Below are positions 35,870 to 41,471 of a DNA stretch of 64,000 bases, piece after piece. The stretch is from a virus: the IMG/VR virus record IMGVR_UViG_3300043774_000178, positions 50,091-114,090 of that record, one strand, 5' to 3'. Every line of letters starts with the position of its first letter. Within the stretch, counting starts at the first letter, position 1. Both the position numbers and the translations under genes were made by a program. The notes under the pieces are model-generated. The model searched no databases, had not been told where the DNA came from, and saw only the letters and a list, made by a program, of their open reading frames with translations.

Positions 35870-36082
35870 TTATTTGTTTTTAGGGTTTAAATATTCAACA
35901 ATTTTTGTGGGCATACGTCCACTGTTTAATACTGCTATACCAGCAGTGATATCTGATTCAGCCCATATTGTAAAGACTTCTTCATTACTCCATACTTTAA
36001 ACGGTACAAGACCTGCAGTATGGAGTTCATACATCTGCTCAACATAGTCATCATAGTATTGGTCATATATAGGATCTTGCAT
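35870..36082 (-). CDS. Hypothetical protein
   Basis: 70-aa ORF. Confidence 0.55.
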   Translation of the reverse strand: MQDPIYDQYYDDYVEQMYELHTAGLVPFKVWSNEEVFTIWAESDITAGIAVLNSGRMPTKIVEYLNPKNK

Positions 36083-36324
36083 CAGTCATGACTTTTAGGT
36101 GTAACGCCTACTATTTGATCAGGTGTATATTCATCTAATGCTTTTATATAAGCTTCTATAGCTGTGTCAGCGTGTATAGTCACTACTGATACAGAGTATC
36201 TTTGACTACCAGGTTGTATTCTGACCAAATATGCTTGGTTATCTCCACCAAAGAATTCTCTAAATGCAGTTAGTATAGCTTCCTCAGAAGCCATGCCATT
36301 CATCATTAGAATAATCTTCTTCAA
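36082..36324 (-). CDS. Hypothetical protein
   Basis: 80-aa ORF. Confidence 0.5.
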   Translation of the reverse strand: MKKIILMMNGMASEEAILTAFREFFGGDNQAYLVRIQPGSQRYSVSVVTIHADTAIEAYIKALDEYTPDQIVGVTPKSHD

Positions 36325-36508
36325 GCATTTGCTCTAAGAAATTTTGAGCTATCTCACCATGAATCTCAAACTTAGGTTTTACAGGTGTAGCAACTTGCTT
36401 AGCTCTAATAAGCATTTTAAGAGTGTTACGGAGGTGATTAACGTCCATATCATCAACATTAATCTTTTGACCATTCCTCATGGTCCAATAAACTGGTTCT
36501 TTAATCAT
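36284..36508 (-). CDS. Small conserved phage protein
   Basis: YWTMRNGQKINVDDMDVNHLRNTLKML motif. Confidence 0.65.
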   Translation of the reverse strand: MIKEPVYWTMRNGQKINVDDMDVNHLRNTLKMLIRAKQVATPVKPKFEIHGEIAQNFLEQMLEEDYSNDEWHGF

Positions 36509-36523
36509 AATTATAAATTTAAG

Positions 36524-36790
36524 TTAGTAATCAAGTTTCTGTATTTCTTTTTGGATAAATTCTAGTCTTGCCTCTAGATTTCCATATTCATTAAATGCTA
36601 GTAATTCTGCATCACTAAGTTGTGCTTTATATTCTTCAACTGGTTTATTCATATAGTTACCTAAATGAATATATTCTTCTTGACTAATAAGATTTGATTC
36701 TAACAATCCTCTTAACCAGCCCATTATACCGCCTCTAAACTTATCTTTGTTTTGCACCATAAGTTTTAATAGTTCTTTGTCTGCTCTCAT
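36524..36790 (-). CDS. Hypothetical protein
   Basis: 88-aa ORF. Confidence 0.6.
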   Translation of the reverse strand: MRADKELLKLMVQNKDKFRGGIMGWLRGLLESNLISQEEYIHLGNYMNKPVEEYKAQLSDAELLAFNEYGNLEARLEFIQKEIQKLDY

Positions 36791-36824
36791 AATATTATTA
36801 ATTAAGTTTCTATAAGTTATGTTA

Positions 36825-37555
36825 AGTAAAACTACAAGTCAAACTCTGCTTTACAGTATGAGAGTTTATGCCTGAAACCTTGTAGTCTACTCAACAACCA
36901 GAAGTGTTAGCCCGTTGCTGTCCCTAGGGAGTGCTGGCATGTGGTTACTGGTTAAATACCCCTCTGCACTCAGTTGTAATAGTATTGGTTGTAGCTCAAT
37001 TTAAAAGTAAACATCATTCAAGATAGCGTACTGTGAACACTTCTATATATCTATAGAGCTATCACTATCTTATAGTTTAAATTAAATCATAACTAAGAGT
37101 TCTTATACTACTCTTAAATCAACTATTACAACTGCTCACCCTTGGGAAGTGAGAATGGTGCATTAGTACCTTGCATACTCTTACAAGGATTAGTTATTTC
37201 TGTCTTCCAGTGGTACTTCTACCTGCAATTTTAACTACTCCAATTGCATAAATTACTTTAAGTATAAAGCTTTCGCATTTCACTTATGCCTTTCTTACAA
37301 AGATGATTAGTCTTCTCAACCTTTACAGAGGTTTAGTTAGGAGTTACATACAGCTAACAAGTAATCATCTTGTTTCTTATAATCTTACTGTAATAAGATT
37401 AAATCACTGACATAAATAGTACTCTCACAAGGTTGCAACCCTTGAGGATGTAGTCATTCCATTAAGAGCCCACAGTAATAGACTGACGAGATCTACTAGT
37501 AGCATTTCCTTACCTGCTTGGATGAGAGTATAAGCAGTTTTATATCATGCTTAGG
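36825..37555 (-). ncRNA. Candidate large structured non-coding RNA (or cluster of RNAs)
   Basis: ~730 nt with no ORF of 60 aa or more, containing many long complementary pairings (see findings); strand inferred from context. Confidence 0.55.
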
Positions 37556-37563
37556 ATATGTCT

Positions 37564-37809
37564 TTAGATATTATCAATACATATTAATGAATCTAAGTCA
37601 GCGTATTTACCTGTGTATACTTTGCCCGACTGTGATTCTACTTTGATACTATCTTCAGAGACTTCAAGGAAATACTCTGTCTTAATATGCTTAGAAGTTT
37701 TGGGAGAATGATGCTCTACAGCATTATTGTGTCCTAATATACATCCTACAAAGAATGTAATAATAGCATAAATAGTGAATGCGAATGCAAGTTTACCATT
37801 GTTAATCAT
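37564..37809 (-). CDS. Membrane-anchored hypothetical protein
   Basis: MINNGKLAFAFTIYAIITFFVGCILG TM helix; upstream Tyr-rich extension judged spurious. Confidence 0.6.
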   Translation of the reverse strand: MINNGKLAFAFTIYAIITFFVGCILGHNNAVEHHSPKTSKHIKTEYFLEVSEDSIKVESQSGKVYTGKYADLDSLICIDNI

Positions 37810-37929
37810 ATAATTGAGATTTGAGTTACTGAAATTAATTCCCCGGAGAATATGTGGCTCTAATAGATAATAATAATAGTATAGATAGAGATAGAGATAG
37901 TAAGTAAGTATGTATAAAGATACTTGTAT

Positions 37930-38121
37930 ATACTGACCAATAGCCATATTCTTAAATTGTATGTGGAGTATGAGTAGGGATTATTCATACTGACCAAGGT
38001 TGTTGTAGATATGTGGTGGTTGATTATCAACTAGTTAGCTCTTAATGAATCTTAATTAATCCATAGTAACTTCAATAACATACTAGTTTATCACTAGTAT
38101 ATACTGACCATGTATTGACCA
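37930..38121. repeat. ATACTGACCA direct repeats
   Basis: Copies at 37930, 37987, 38101 and variant GTATTGACCA at 38112. Confidence 0.7.
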
Positions 38122-38239
38122 TACCTTTACAACCCCACTCTGTTTTGAGCTGTTTAACTTAAGCCGCAGACGAAGTCTGCTTAATAGCAAAAACAATAAC
38201 CCTACACTGTATATCAGTATAGGGTCATTGTGGATTGGG

Positions 38240-38635
38240 TTAAATCTCAGCCTCAGCTTGTTCCTCAATCACAAAGCCAAACATGGATGCAGTAGTAACT
38301 ACAGCACTTGCAAGATGGCTTAGGGTCCAAAGTATGATGAGCTCACCATTCTCATCGCGCTTAGCATCCTGTGTAGTAGGATCCCACACAGTACTAGCTT
38401 TAGCACTGTACTTACGTCCTACAACAAACTCTGCATCAGCATGGTTATAGGTACCTGCATAAACCTGTGCTGTAGTAGCAATGCCATCTACATCAATGGT
38501 TGCGAGTTTATACTCAGTACCATTAGAGTTGGTGAATGTTTGTGCACTAAGTGGTGCAACAAGCTTAGCACTTTTACGCGCTTCATAGCTAATTGTTCCA
38601 TTAGCTAAGTCTACTCTTTTCATTTTCATAATCAT
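38240..38635 (-). CDS. Early-region hypothetical protein (OB-fold-like?)
   Basis: 131-aa beta-rich ORF downstream of motif 38676. Confidence 0.65.
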   Translation of the reverse strand: MIMKMKRVDLANGTISYEARKSAKLVAPLSAQTFTNSNGTEYKLATIDVDGIATTAQVYAGTYNHADAEFVVGRKYSAKASTVWDPTTQDAKRDENGELIILWTLSHLASAVVTTASMFGFVIEEQAEAEI

Positions 38636-38728
38636 AAAAATTAGAAATTAAACAATCATTTATCCAACTTAGTTATGAGCTGTTTAATAAAAAAGCCGCA
38701 TGCGTAGCATGCTACAAGTGTGGTTAGC

Positions 38729-38826
38729 AATTCCCACTTGGGTATATATTATTACCCATTATGTGAATACAAATTCCCACTTGCTATTAAAACCTTCCCG
38801 TGTGAAGAGTTTGAAATTCCCACTTG
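38729..38826. repeat. Three AATTCCCACTTG repeats at exact 43-bp period
   Basis: Copies at 38729, 38772, 38815, separated by unique 31-bp spacers. Confidence 0.85.
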
Positions 38827-38843
38827 AGTAGAAAAAAAGGGGA

Positions 38844-39110
38844 TTATTCATCCCCTATTAATCTCATGTCTGTGGTTTGAGCTAAATCATTAAGATATTC
38901 AAAGCTCTGTTTCATACTCATAAACAGATTTGCTAATGTCCAATCACATGTTGTAGGATTTCCTGGTCCTTTATAGTAAGTACCATACTTCTTTGTTTTT
39001 GGATCATAAAAGTAGAACCCCATGATATCTATATTTCTACTCATGAATAGTTCTTTCATTTTCCAACGGAGATCCTTTAGCATTTCTAATTCTATTTCTT
39101 TCTTTGTCAT
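38844..39110 (-). CDS. Early cassette hypothetical protein
   Basis: Motif upstream, terminator overlapping stop. Confidence 0.65.
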   Translation of the reverse strand: MTKKEIELEMLKDLRWKMKELFMSRNIDIMGFYFYDPKTKKYGTYYKGPGNPTTCDWTLANLFMSMKQSFEYLNDLAQTTDMRLIGDE

Positions 39111-39170
39111 GATATATAGTTTTAGTTAATAATTGTGAGCTGTTTAAAGAGGTAAATAATAAAGGGGATA

Positions 39171-39392
39171 TTACTCCCCTTTATTAAGATGTTGTTTTAA
39201 CATCTTAATTAAATGCTCAGCTTGTTCATTGCTTAATTTAATTATAGCAATTTCAGCTGAATCAAATGACATAAAAAGTTCTAACTTTTCTTTACCATTT
39301 GATTGTACAGAAATACATACATCTTGCCCATCTAATTCATTTAAGCTTGATGATGTCTTTGCATTATTAATAATGTTGTTTAGTATATTCAT
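39171..39392 (-). CDS. Early cassette hypothetical protein
   Basis: Motif upstream, terminator overlapping stop. Confidence 0.65.
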   Translation of the reverse strand: MNILNNIINNAKTSSSLNELDGQDVCISVQSNGKEKLELFMSFDSAEIAIIKLSNEQAEHLIKMLKQHLNKGE

Positions 39393-39468
39393 AACAATAA
39401 ATTTTAATACTAGTTATGAGCTGTTTATATTTAAAAAAAGAAGAGGAGCCTAAGCCCCTCCACCTTAA

Positions 39469-39687
39469 TCAGATGTCATCCTCCATGTTGATGGTAGGAC
39501 GTAACTGTGCTATGTCTGCATCTTGATACAGAGAGTCACGGTACTTAACAAGTTCACGTAATGATAAGCAGTCCATAGCCTCAATGAGTGCTTGCTCTTG
39601 AGCCTTGTGTGGACGTAGGAATAGTATCCCTGCAATCTCCATTACTACATCATTTTTGTTTTCTTTTGCTTTAGTTAAATTAAACAT
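39469..39687 (-). CDS. Early cassette hypothetical protein
   Basis: Motif upstream; GAGGGGC-TTAG-GCTCCTC plus T-tract downstream. Confidence 0.65.
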   Translation of the reverse strand: MFNLTKAKENKNDVVMEIAGILFLRPHKAQEQALIEAMDCLSLRELVKYRDSLYQDADIAQLRPTINMEDDI

Positions 39688-39750
39688 GATAAATAAATTT
39701 TAAGGTTCATATTAGTTTTGAGCTGTTTATTCTGGTAAGTAAAAAGGGGA

Positions 39751-39945
39751 TTATATTTTCCCCTCTTCACTCAATTCTATGATAGTCATCAGTGCAGCAA
39801 AGATGGATATTAATCCCCCCACTACTACGTATCCTGATTCACTAGCAATAGTACTGAATCCACACTTAGGACATATTAAGAATATGAACCCAGCACCTGC
39901 AAGGTAATACCCGCAGAATGTTACTAAAAATAAAAATGTTTTCAT
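39751..39945 (-). CDS. Early cassette small membrane protein
   Basis: Two TM helices with CPKC loop. Confidence 0.65.
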   Translation of the reverse strand: MKTFLFLVTFCGYYLAGAGFIFLICPKCGFSTIASESGYVVVGGLISIFAALMTIIELSEEGKI

Positions 39946-39994
39946 AGCTTATAATTTTAAGTATAGTATATGAGCTGTTTAAAATAAATGGGGA

Positions 39995-40084
39995 TTAATA
40001 TCCAATCCCCATTGCAAAGCAATACAACTCTAGTAAGAACCAGAGTATGATTGCAATTTTGTAACCTCCATCTAGATACTTCAT
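39995..40084 (-). CDS. 29-aa hydrophobic peptide
   Basis: MKYLDGGYKIAIILWFLLELYCFAMGIGY; ATGA overlap with upstream gene. Confidence 0.5.
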   Translation of the reverse strand: MKYLDGGYKIAIILWFLLELYCFAMGIGY

Positions 40085-40236
40085 GATTCCTGTATAAATA
40101 GTGAAGAAACACCTGCAACTCCTGCAAGTGCAAATAGTACTAGCCACCACTGGCTTTCACCATCAATCAATGCACCGATTGAGATAGTCATTACACCAGC
40201 TAAATAAATCTGAACCAATCTTAATACTTTTTTCAT
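40081..40236 (-). CDS. 51-aa two-TM membrane protein
   Basis: MKKVLRLVQIYLAGVMTISIGALIDGESQWWLVLFALAGVAGVSSLFIQES; motif upstream. Confidence 0.6.
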   Translation of the reverse strand: MKKVLRLVQIYLAGVMTISIGALIDGESQWWLVLFALAGVAGVSSLFIQES

Positions 40237-40301
40237 GATACTTGTTTTATAGTTTAGATATAGTACATGAGCTGTTTATATTAAAAAGAAAGAAAAGAGG
40301 A

Positions 40302-40466
40302 TTACTCCTCTTTCTTTCTACACACGTTGAATATAACGTACTCTCCGGCAGTATGAATCTGATACTTCTTAAGAGTTTTAGCAGTCAACCATTGGTTAAG
40401 CTTTTGTTGCATCTGAGTTAACGCTTTGGAATCAGATGCAGGAATTGAAAATATATCTACTCGCAT
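40302..40466 (-). CDS. 54-aa early protein
   Basis: MRVDIFSIPASDSKALTQMQQKLNQW...; motif at 40495; terminator overlapping stop. Confidence 0.6.
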   Translation of the reverse strand: MRVDIFSIPASDSKALTQMQQKLNQWLTAKTLKKYQIHTAGEYVIFNVCRKKEE

Positions 40467-40838
40467 AATACAAAATTTAGTTTAAGTACAGTCTTGAGCT
40501 GTTATACCTATATGTATATAATATATAATACTTTGCGCGTGTATAATATATACATGAGCTTGGTTGTGTCACATGATACAACACATACTATATACAATAT
40601 AGTACCCATAGTAACTCACATAGCCTAAGCAAAGTATTGAGCTGTTGCATGCAAAACATTTTCTCCTGGAAAGAATTACTTGATTTATTCTATATATATG
40701 AGATGCCTTGCTGTAGAAGCATAGGGGGTGCCCCAGGTTTGCGCGGTGGGTGGGGTCTATATATTAAGGACCCATCACAATCTCTAGTATACTGTGAAAC
40801 CAAATACACCATAATAGTTTTTGATATATCTTTACACT

Positions 40839-41471
40839 ATGGCTTATATAGAACACAACTTCTTTCCTCTTAAGGTATTTGTTAGAAATGAGTATATGTA
40901 TCAACATACTAAGGGTGAAGGAGAGTTTACCCCGGGGGTAGTTATCTCAGTAAGATGTATGCCGGGACAAGCAGCATTGTTCCAGGTACTTTTAGAGAAT
41001 GGAGTACTTAGAGATAAGTTACCTTCTCATGCTTTACTTACCAAGGATACTCTCCCAGATCCTGATCTACCTTTTCATTATCTACAGATATGGAATTGCT
41101 TTTCATACAACTTTACTTTACTGCATCTATCATACTTATATGATACACCTGTAGAAGTATATATGAAGGATAGGAAGTTCTACCCAGGTAGTTATTATGG
41201 TACAATCAACTGGGGAGCTAATGACCTTAACTCAGACCTGTCTCTAGCAGAAGATCCTCTAGAACATAAGTCACATCATATTATATTACTTGATAATGGG
41301 CAGATAGCACTGCAACCTAACAATCGTATTAAATGGTCTGAACCTTCATTTGTAACTAAACCTTTTCCTGAGAGACCTGACTATCTAGTTAATAAGGATT
41401 ACTATAACTGTGAGGGTTATGAGAAATGGAATACTGAAGATTCAGAAAGAATGTTTTATGATAATGAATAG
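40839..41471 (+). CDS. Conserved phage hypothetical protein
   Basis: MAYIEHNFFP..VRNEY..DKLPSHA..LQIWNCFSY..EHKSHH..NGQIALQPNNRI. Confidence 0.75.
   Translation: MAYIEHNFFPLKVFVRNEYMYQHTKGEGEFTPGVVISVRCMPGQAALFQVLLENGVLRDKLPSHALLTKDTLPDPDLPFHYLQIWNCFSYNFTLLHLSYLYDTPVEVYMKDRKFYPGSYYGTINWGANDLNSDLSLAEDPLEHKSHHIILLDNGQIALQPNNRIKWSEPSFVTKPFPERPDYLVNKDYYNCEGYEKWNTEDSERMFYDNE

Follow-up and report, generated by a model that had tools for sequence, protein, structure and literature searches.

Covarying mini-hairpins beside early promoter motifs of an uncultured crAss-like phage as candidate template-strand elements

The early gene array and its two mini-hairpins

The window analyzed here is the whole 64,000-nt stretch that forms bases 50091 to 114090 of a 114,090-bp contig (34% G+C). 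In its layout the genome is that of an uncultured crAss-like phage; its terminase and portal matched phrog_6681 and phrog_6547, and the terminase is about 25% identical to Crassvirales terminases. A 4075-aa ORF carries the sequence DFDVD within a segment, GSDFDVDK, that aligns to the gp50 polymerase of crAss001, and tblastn returned crAss polymerase homologues. A phmmer search of the DFDVD region against PDB sequences gave no matches, and neither the 4075-aa ORF nor the small early proteins had matches in PHROGs or Pfam. By these alignments the genome encodes a homologue of the crAss-type polymerase that the first-pass annotation of this DNA had presupposed. The two ends of the genome (1 to 200 and 113890 to 114090) are similar but not identical, an imperfect overlap that may reflect a circle closed across a variable or duplicated gene.

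From about position 40466 leftwards the genes lie on the − strand, so the + strand is their template, as had been supposed. This gene block is headed by small cassettes of one gene each, arrayed over 2.5 kb, and on the coding strand the early motif [T/A]TAAACAGCTCA stands before every cassette. We counted seven strong and two weak copies of the motif, all on one strand and, within the genome, confined to the array; the bare 8-mer AACAGCTC occurs three further times elsewhere in the genome, inside coding sequence. The motif is not sigma-70-like. Megablast of the region against phage records returned no matches, and an Rfam scan of 36000 to 41000 returned no credible family. A near-identical metagenome contig (L219) lacks the whole cassette of an 88-aa gene (39158 to 38860), with the junction falling within the flanking terminator and promoter sequences.

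Two strong copies of the motif are accompanied by a perfect 6-bp hairpin with a 3-nt loop. The mini-hairpin H1 (38698 to 38712, +) reads GCATGC-GTA-GCATGC on the template strand and GCATGC-TAC-GCATGC-GGCTT on the coding strand, where the last five letters are a tail (38693 to 38697; AAGCC on the + strand) that abuts the stem directly. Downstream of it in the coding direction is a motif copy at 38677 to 38687 (+), which reads GAGCTGTTTAA (coding strand TTAAACAGCTC); the ATG of the next gene, which encodes the OB-fold protein described below, follows after about 40 nt. The mini-hairpin H2 (38166 to 38180, +) reads GCAGAC-GAA-GTCTGC on the template strand and GCAGAC-TTC-GTCTGC-GGCTT on the coding strand, with its tail at 38161 to 38165 (again AAGCC on the + strand and GGCTT on the coding strand) and a motif copy, GAGCTGTTTAA, at 38147 to 38157 (+). 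The sequence and position of both hairpins, including their GAA and GTA loops after AAGCC, are exactly as the first-pass annotation gave them; the gap between motif and hairpin, which it put at 10 to 12 nt, measures 8 nt at H2 and 10 nt at H1. Its remark that the stems differ while pairing is kept also held, with compensation at the two pairs by which H1 and H2 differ (T-A becoming G-C, and G-C becoming A-T).

Across all 114,090 bp of the genome, H1 and H2 are the sole perfect hairpins that have six or more pairs, at least four of them G:C, around a 3-base loop, although a count of two is not significant by itself, the mean in sequences simulated with a Markov model of matched dinucleotide make-up being 1.7. 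What is significant is their placement beside two of the seven strong motif copies, together with their conservation in relatives. They are also the genome's only matches to a rule requiring a stem of at least 4 bp, a T-N-C loop and a GC(C)TT tail. Since only two of the seven to nine motif copies have this module (two of the seven strong ones), the motif evidently works without it. Directly upstream of each of the remaining five strong copies, which have no mini-hairpin, there is an ordinary terminator hairpin with its T run.

The two hairpins bracket an early gene on the − strand (38240 to 38635) that encodes a 131-aa protein. Its family alignment and predicted structure indicate an OB fold followed by a disordered acidic C-terminal tail (pLDDT 81), and its best structural matches were SSB, PriB and IF1 at Z scores of 7 to 8; with moderate confidence, these predictions suggest an SSB-like protein. 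The family occurs in several of the related lineages and is very divergent, with 11 to 28% identity between lineages. Between the terminator of the upstream 88-aa gene and H1 there are three exact copies of a 12-bp repeat, AATTCCCACTTG, with a 43-bp period (38729 to 38826, +; 0.34 expected). In L218-type relatives the spacer before H1 has two copies of ATTCTTGGATTCCTAA instead.

The motif copy beside H2 heads a stretch of about 200 nt (37948 to 38146) without a convincing ORF; for the slightly longer region 37930 to 38146 (−) the mechanical ORF list gives overlapping 56- and 61-aa ORFs with TTG starts and the start of a 127-aa ORF (37564 to 37947). The stretch contains repeats of GGTCAGTAT (complement at 37930, 37987 and 38101) and two conserved blocks, AGCTAAC and the palindrome TTGATAATCAA, of which the palindrome covaries, being CTGATTATCAG in L177. 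Almost every distant lineage read (L160, L172, L177, L183, L206 and L222 among them) has GGTCA repeats at the corresponding place; the exceptions were L169, with GGTCTGA-type repeats, and L185, with none in the stretch read. The stretch behind the H2 promoter may correspond to a non-coding RNA or to an origin. The metagenome contigs L219 and L220, which are independent of each other, both stop at position 38026, in the middle of a palindrome (between TTGAT and AATCAA); the assembly may have broken at a hairpin there, or the end may be real.

Conservation and covariation of the module in related phages

Relatives were fetched in four ways, by a ferredoxin-like neighbor gene, by the gene between the hairpins, by motif patterns and by protein homologues. 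In the relatives the module has a constant order on the coding strand: a stem of 3 to 7 bp, a T-N-C loop, a (R)GC(C)TT tail, a gap of 3 to 13 nt and then the lineage's own early motif. The hairpin itself measures 15 nt in this window and as little as 9 nt in relatives. Both the H1 and the H2 site are kept as a module around the OB-fold gene in all examined lineages that have this gene family. The proposal that the hairpins adjoin a promoter motif was upheld in every lineage examined, the hairpin always lying upstream of that lineage's own motif, at a distance that varies over the 3 to 13 nt given above.

The stems of the relatives are free in sequence (GCATGC, GCTTGC, TGTTGC, TGTCC, GATGC, TGGCT, GAAACTT, GCC, TGC, GTC and others), and pairing is kept throughout. 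H1 is identical in L218 to L221 and becomes GCTTGC-TAC-GCAAGC in L222, a compensatory change from A-T to T-A; H2 is likewise identical in L218 to L221, and distant lineages have other stems at the same site. In 30 module sequences from at least 12 lineages, compiled with the inner three pairs required and the outer three not, 83.9% of cells were paired, against 48.6% in shuffles. The covariation score of these sequences was 0.885, against 0.224 in shuffles, a value that none of 500 shuffles reached, and slid controls scored 0.05 to 0.28. All six stem pairs change on both sides. From these sequence comparisons we take it that the mini-hairpin structure is under selection.

The tail is as constant as the stem is variable: (R)GC(C)TT was present in all 36 compiled modules and abuts the stem whatever the stem length. 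On the coding strand the loops were TTC (17 of the 36), TAC (11), TGC (6) and TCC (2), that is, G-N-A with a free middle base on the template strand; the presence of a GNA loop in 36 of 36 was a criterion of compilation and not an independent result. The closing pair was C-G in 30 modules and T-A in 6. Two further counts bear on the loop. At sites chosen by the OB-fold neighbor alone, a TNC hairpin with tail was counted by eye in 20 of 20 distinct H1 sequences and in 16 of 20 distinct H2 sequences, the H2 exceptions being L222 (GCAC-TTT-GTGC without the tail) and L177, L236 and L238 (GAGCC-TAAA-GGCTC or GAGCC-TAAC-GGCTC, with a 4-nt loop). In 1.02 Mb of related loci, distinct hairpins with the tail and a stem of 5 bp or more numbered 57; 23 of these had TNC loops, where about 3 were expected. 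Three close pairs of phages differ in the loop at N alone (TAC in L206 and TGC in L227, TTC in L185 and TAC in L203, TCC in L160 and TTC in L235). Loss of the GNA loop in relatives, which the first-pass annotation had named as grounds for giving up its proposal, was thus not what we saw; the loop is kept on the template strand. The second stem pair was G:C or C:G in 22 of 29 distinct modules, and many template-strand cores are exactly GCGNAGC or CCGAAGG.

One lineage, L214, carries the element along its whole array, with a perfect GCC-TNC-GGC at five of its six early promoters and a degenerate GCC-TGC-AGC at the sixth; four of the six also have a canonical terminator just upstream. The search for the module beside the motif in Crassvirales, recommended at the outset, was successful in at least 12 related lineages but found none in the 12 kb at the start of phi14:2 or in the part of crAss001 that was scanned, about 100 of its 102.7 kb, and the module therefore concerns one environmental clade. 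Scanning viral contigs with the pattern GCGGCTT-N(1-14)-AAACAGCTC gave mostly chance matches and one true relative.

The motif that follows the module differs from lineage to lineage. Repeated motifs found at the same place in related phages were TATACAGCTTT, AACATCTC, CCACTCATAA, TGCCGCTTTTAACT, AACCTCTCA, TACTTCTTT, AACAACTTTA and GCAACTTTTATAG, which by our own reading have the skeleton wACnnCTywwwACT in common. Motifs differ even between close phages: over the region corresponding to 38147 to 40650 of the window, loci in the range L138 to L217 whose ferredoxin-like neighbor is 88 to 98% identical have AACAGCTCA, TACAGCTTT, AACATCTC to AACAACTTTA and others, each of them with this skeleton. 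From the sequences, the divergence of the motifs looks like promoter specificity coevolving with a phage protein. In the relative L018 (1380 to 1680) another repeated box, TAACCCTTATAATA, stands before the next small genes, after the non-coding region, and may represent a second promoter class.

The acting strand and rival explanations

The conserved loop reads T..C in the coding strand but G..A in the template; this asymmetry excludes an operator of the symmetric duplex kind and is indicative of a form that is single-stranded. Either nucleic acid could in principle supply that form, and the models suggest that the 6-bp stems of the window would fold as DNA or RNA alike: nearest-neighbor DNA folding of the template (+) strand hairpins gave −4.9 and −5.5 kcal/mol with z-scores near −2, values from which a GNA-loop term is probably absent, and the predicted RNA folds of H1 and H2 reach −8 to −9 kcal/mol. 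Three observations favor the template-strand DNA over the RNA. We know of no special stability of U-N-C triloops. Stems of only 3 bp occur in 12 of the 36 modules, and in the two examples that were folded as RNA the hairpin either did not form or was no better than in shuffles. The third is that G-N-A closed by C-G defines a class of exceptionally stable DNA mini-hairpins, for which two or three pairs suffice (PMC13037366; PMC3201870). H1 has the core of this class, two G:C pairs closing GNA on one strand (GCGTAGC); the H2 core, ACGAAGT, is closed by C-G with A-T as its second pair. Against the reading as a DNA hairpin counts the fact that 3-bp inverted repeats are unable to extrude as cruciforms alone, and conservation of the loop could equally reflect a requirement for U-N-C in the RNA. 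A reading of the loop as a UUCG tetraloop was rejected, as it breaks the stem register. Asymmetry of G:T wobbles was also discarded as a test of strand; only modules with 3-bp stems have wobbles, all of them T(5'):G(3') and at the outer positions, and these are explained by flank composition and are uninformative.

Weak terminators were the alternative that accompanied the original proposal. The OB-fold gene has a canonical terminator of its own (38193 to 38231, −), a 17-bp stem followed by TTTTT that ends 12 nt upstream of H2, and the upstream 88-aa gene has one at 38838 to 38856 (−), 125 nt upstream of H1. For H1, for H2 and for nearly all modules read in relatives, a canonical terminator with long stem and T run is found 12 to 170 nt upstream, with no ORF between; the promoters that lead the arrays of L214 and L182 have none, and none was evident upstream of H1 in L172 and L230 or in L185 and L203. 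Neither H1 nor H2 therefore stands at the 3' end of a transcription unit, since the canonical terminators precede them. H1 is followed by GGC and then six T's and was flagged as terminator-like by a terminator scan, and H2 has no T run. A T-rich tail was found in 16 of the 36 modules and is rare at H2 sites. The idea of weak terminators is weakened by the separate terminators upstream and by a T run in only those 16 modules, H1 keeping its terminator-like appearance, and on sequence grounds H1 and H2 are unlikely to be ordinary terminators. They share with Rho-independent terminators a GC-rich hairpin on the coding strand and, at H1, the following T run. They differ in that they come after another terminator, have no conserved T run, have stems down to 3 bp and conserve both loop and tail.

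A more specialized role at the RNA level would be that of auxiliary (tandem) intrinsic terminators or insulators against read-through into the next promoter, or of protective 3'-end hairpins. Relative to the motif, the mini-hairpins stand where the other five cassettes have their canonical terminators, T runs recur at H1 modules in several lineages, the hairpins of the window are predicted to fold as RNA at the energies given above, and H1 with its T run was flagged in the terminator scan. The promoter-early stem-loop (PeSL) cassettes of T4-type phages, in which GGGG...CCCC terminators are paired with sigma-70 promoters, provide a precedent for promoter-adjacent stem-loops that terminate transcription (PMC2839356). 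As a whole the array does match that type, with a stem-loop and an early promoter around small variable ORFs and with shuffling: it consists of small single-gene cassettes, each with a stem-loop beside an early promoter, that near-identical genomes gain and lose. The match, however, fits the canonical terminators of the array and not the mini-hairpins: these accompany a terminator and have a conserved TNC/GNA loop together with an RGCTT tail. Nearly every module read moreover has a strong canonical terminator before it, with no gene between; H2 and most of its orthologues have no T run; at H1 GGC stands between stem and T run; 3-bp versions are conserved though predicted not to be stable as RNA; and the T-N-C loop and the RGCTT tail, both conserved, have no known role in termination. 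We consider an RNA-level element of this kind possible but unlikely.

Two other explanations leave the element in DNA. Template-strand mini-hairpins could be single-strand initiation or primase-loading signals of an origin that would also take in the SSB-like gene and both sets of repeats, GGTCA and 12-bp. Hairpins of the same class mark primase sites, for example at the G4 and St-1 complementary-strand origins and at ssiA of RSF1010 (PMC13037366), and the modules here flank the OB-fold, SSB-like gene and adjoin iteron-like repeats. Yet H1 and H2 are both on one strand, a promoter motif lies 3 to 13 nt from each module in every lineage, and in L214 mini-hairpins front six cassette promoters, five with the perfect and one with the degenerate form. 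It is because of these three features that a role in transcription initiation is ranked first, and we hold a replication element to be distinctly unlikely. The remaining explanation, that the inverted repeats are duplex sites for a regulator, for example in autoregulation of the OB-fold gene, draws on the bracketing of one conserved gene by two sites and on a common box of about 10 nt upstream of the stem at H1 and H2 of some lineages. Its half-sites, though, are free in sequence, both between H1 and H2 and between lineages, and what is conserved is pairing together with an asymmetric T..C loop, for which a symmetric dimer on duplex DNA would not select. A protein operator therefore appears highly improbable, and a duplex operator was rejected as the main reading on account of the free half-sites and the asymmetric loop.

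A proposed role in initiation and its comparison with known systems

The reading that we prefer, and to which we would give slightly less than an even chance, is by analogy that of a DNA mini-hairpin, formed by the template strand, which aids initiation at selected early promoters. H1 and H2 would then be promoter-proximal cis-elements acting as single-stranded DNA, placed just upstream of the promoter of the OB-fold gene and of the promoter of the non-coding GGTCA-repeat region behind it. At each of them the template strand would fold into a C-GNA-G mini-hairpin with a conserved 5'-AAGC(C/T) flank. Where supercoiling or SSB-type proteins unwound the promoter, the hairpin on the template strand might remain folded, and it could in this way mark and hold the opened promoter. 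The folded hairpin might also offer the injected crAss-type polymerase a fixed double-/single-strand junction by the lineage motif or the start site. In vitro the gp66 polymerase of phi14:2 transcribes only single-stranded or denatured DNA, and no common motif was found upstream of the early transcripts of that phage (bioRxiv 10.1101/2020.03.07.982082).

In a stronger version of the proposal, which we regard as quite improbable, the hairpin and RGCTT would themselves be the immediate-early start signal of the two-barrel polymerase, with the start at the purine that abuts the stem. This signal would drive the OB-fold SSB and the non-coding or origin transcript, and the OB-fold protein, which evolves fast, would then help to open or specify the lineage-specific motif promoters of the other early cassettes. 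The result would be a two-step early cascade analogous to that of phage N4 and built from unrelated parts. In N4, early transcription is carried out by the virion polymerase first and then by gp2 with RNAPII.

No promoter has so far been established for a crAss-type virion RNA polymerase, and we found no paper describing hairpin promoters for such enzymes. A covarying, strand-specific mini-hairpin beside early motifs offers a concrete template that can be tested with a crAss-type polymerase. If helping initiation from the template strand is indeed its function, hairpin promoters would have arisen independently for two unrelated injected polymerases, and the natural uses of GNA mini-hairpins would extend past N4 and single-strand origins. 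If it is not, the module remains a conserved regulatory element, placed around an SSB-like gene in uncultured phages of a widespread group.

GNA mini-hairpins have two known natural roles, as promoters of the N4 virion polymerase (PMC4496689) and as primase sites on single-stranded DNA (PMC13037366), with GCGGAGC known from the former and CCGAAGG from ssiA of RSF1010 (PMC13037366; PMC4496689). The d(GCGNAGC) initiation sites, those of the G4, St-1 and alpha3 origins and RSF1010 ssiA (CCGAAGG), resemble the elements described here in belonging to the same sequence class, in lying on one strand only and in the replication-type neighbors, here an SSB-like gene and repeats (PMC13037366). They differ in that our elements are each linked to a promoter motif and share one strand, and in that the genome of a relative can have as many as six of them.

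The N4 promoters are template-strand hairpins with a GGA or GAA loop that are activated by SSB and direct a start at a fixed distance (PMC4496689). Like N4 P1 to P3, the elements here are short inverted repeats with a 3-nt template G-N-A loop closed by C-G (GTA and GAA on the + strand), and some relatives have the identical GCGGAGC core (PMC4496689; PMC13037366). The stems also correspond, at 6 bp here and 3 to 7 bp in relatives against 5 to 7 bp in the N4 type. Both lie upstream of early genes in a phage with an injected polymerase of its own, and both have a link to single-strand binding, through E. coli SSB in N4 and through the neighboring SSB-like gene here. The differences are several. 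The hairpin accompanies only some early promoters, two of the seven strong copies in this genome (five perfect and a sixth degenerate in L214), whereas the N4 type would have it at all of them; the middle loop base is free here, where N4 prefers a purine; the N4 start lies 11 nt from the loop center, and spacing to the next conserved element is variable here; some stems have no more than 3 bp; and after the hairpin comes a separate motif that is specific to the lineage. The polymerases differ as well, that of N4 being a T7-like single-subunit virion enzyme and the candidate here aligning to the two-barrel gp50 polymerase of crAss001, for which reason the resemblance is one of analogy and not of membership. 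Of the N4-like hairpin promoters first proposed for this locus, then, what stands is a real, strand-specific, covarying, GNA-looped and promoter-adjacent hairpin; what does not carry over is N4's fixed geometry, given a spacing of 3 to 13 nt, or a place at more than two of the seven to nine motif copies. If the analogy is sound, an N4-like principle would here be served by an unrelated enzyme, outside the N4 promoter family.
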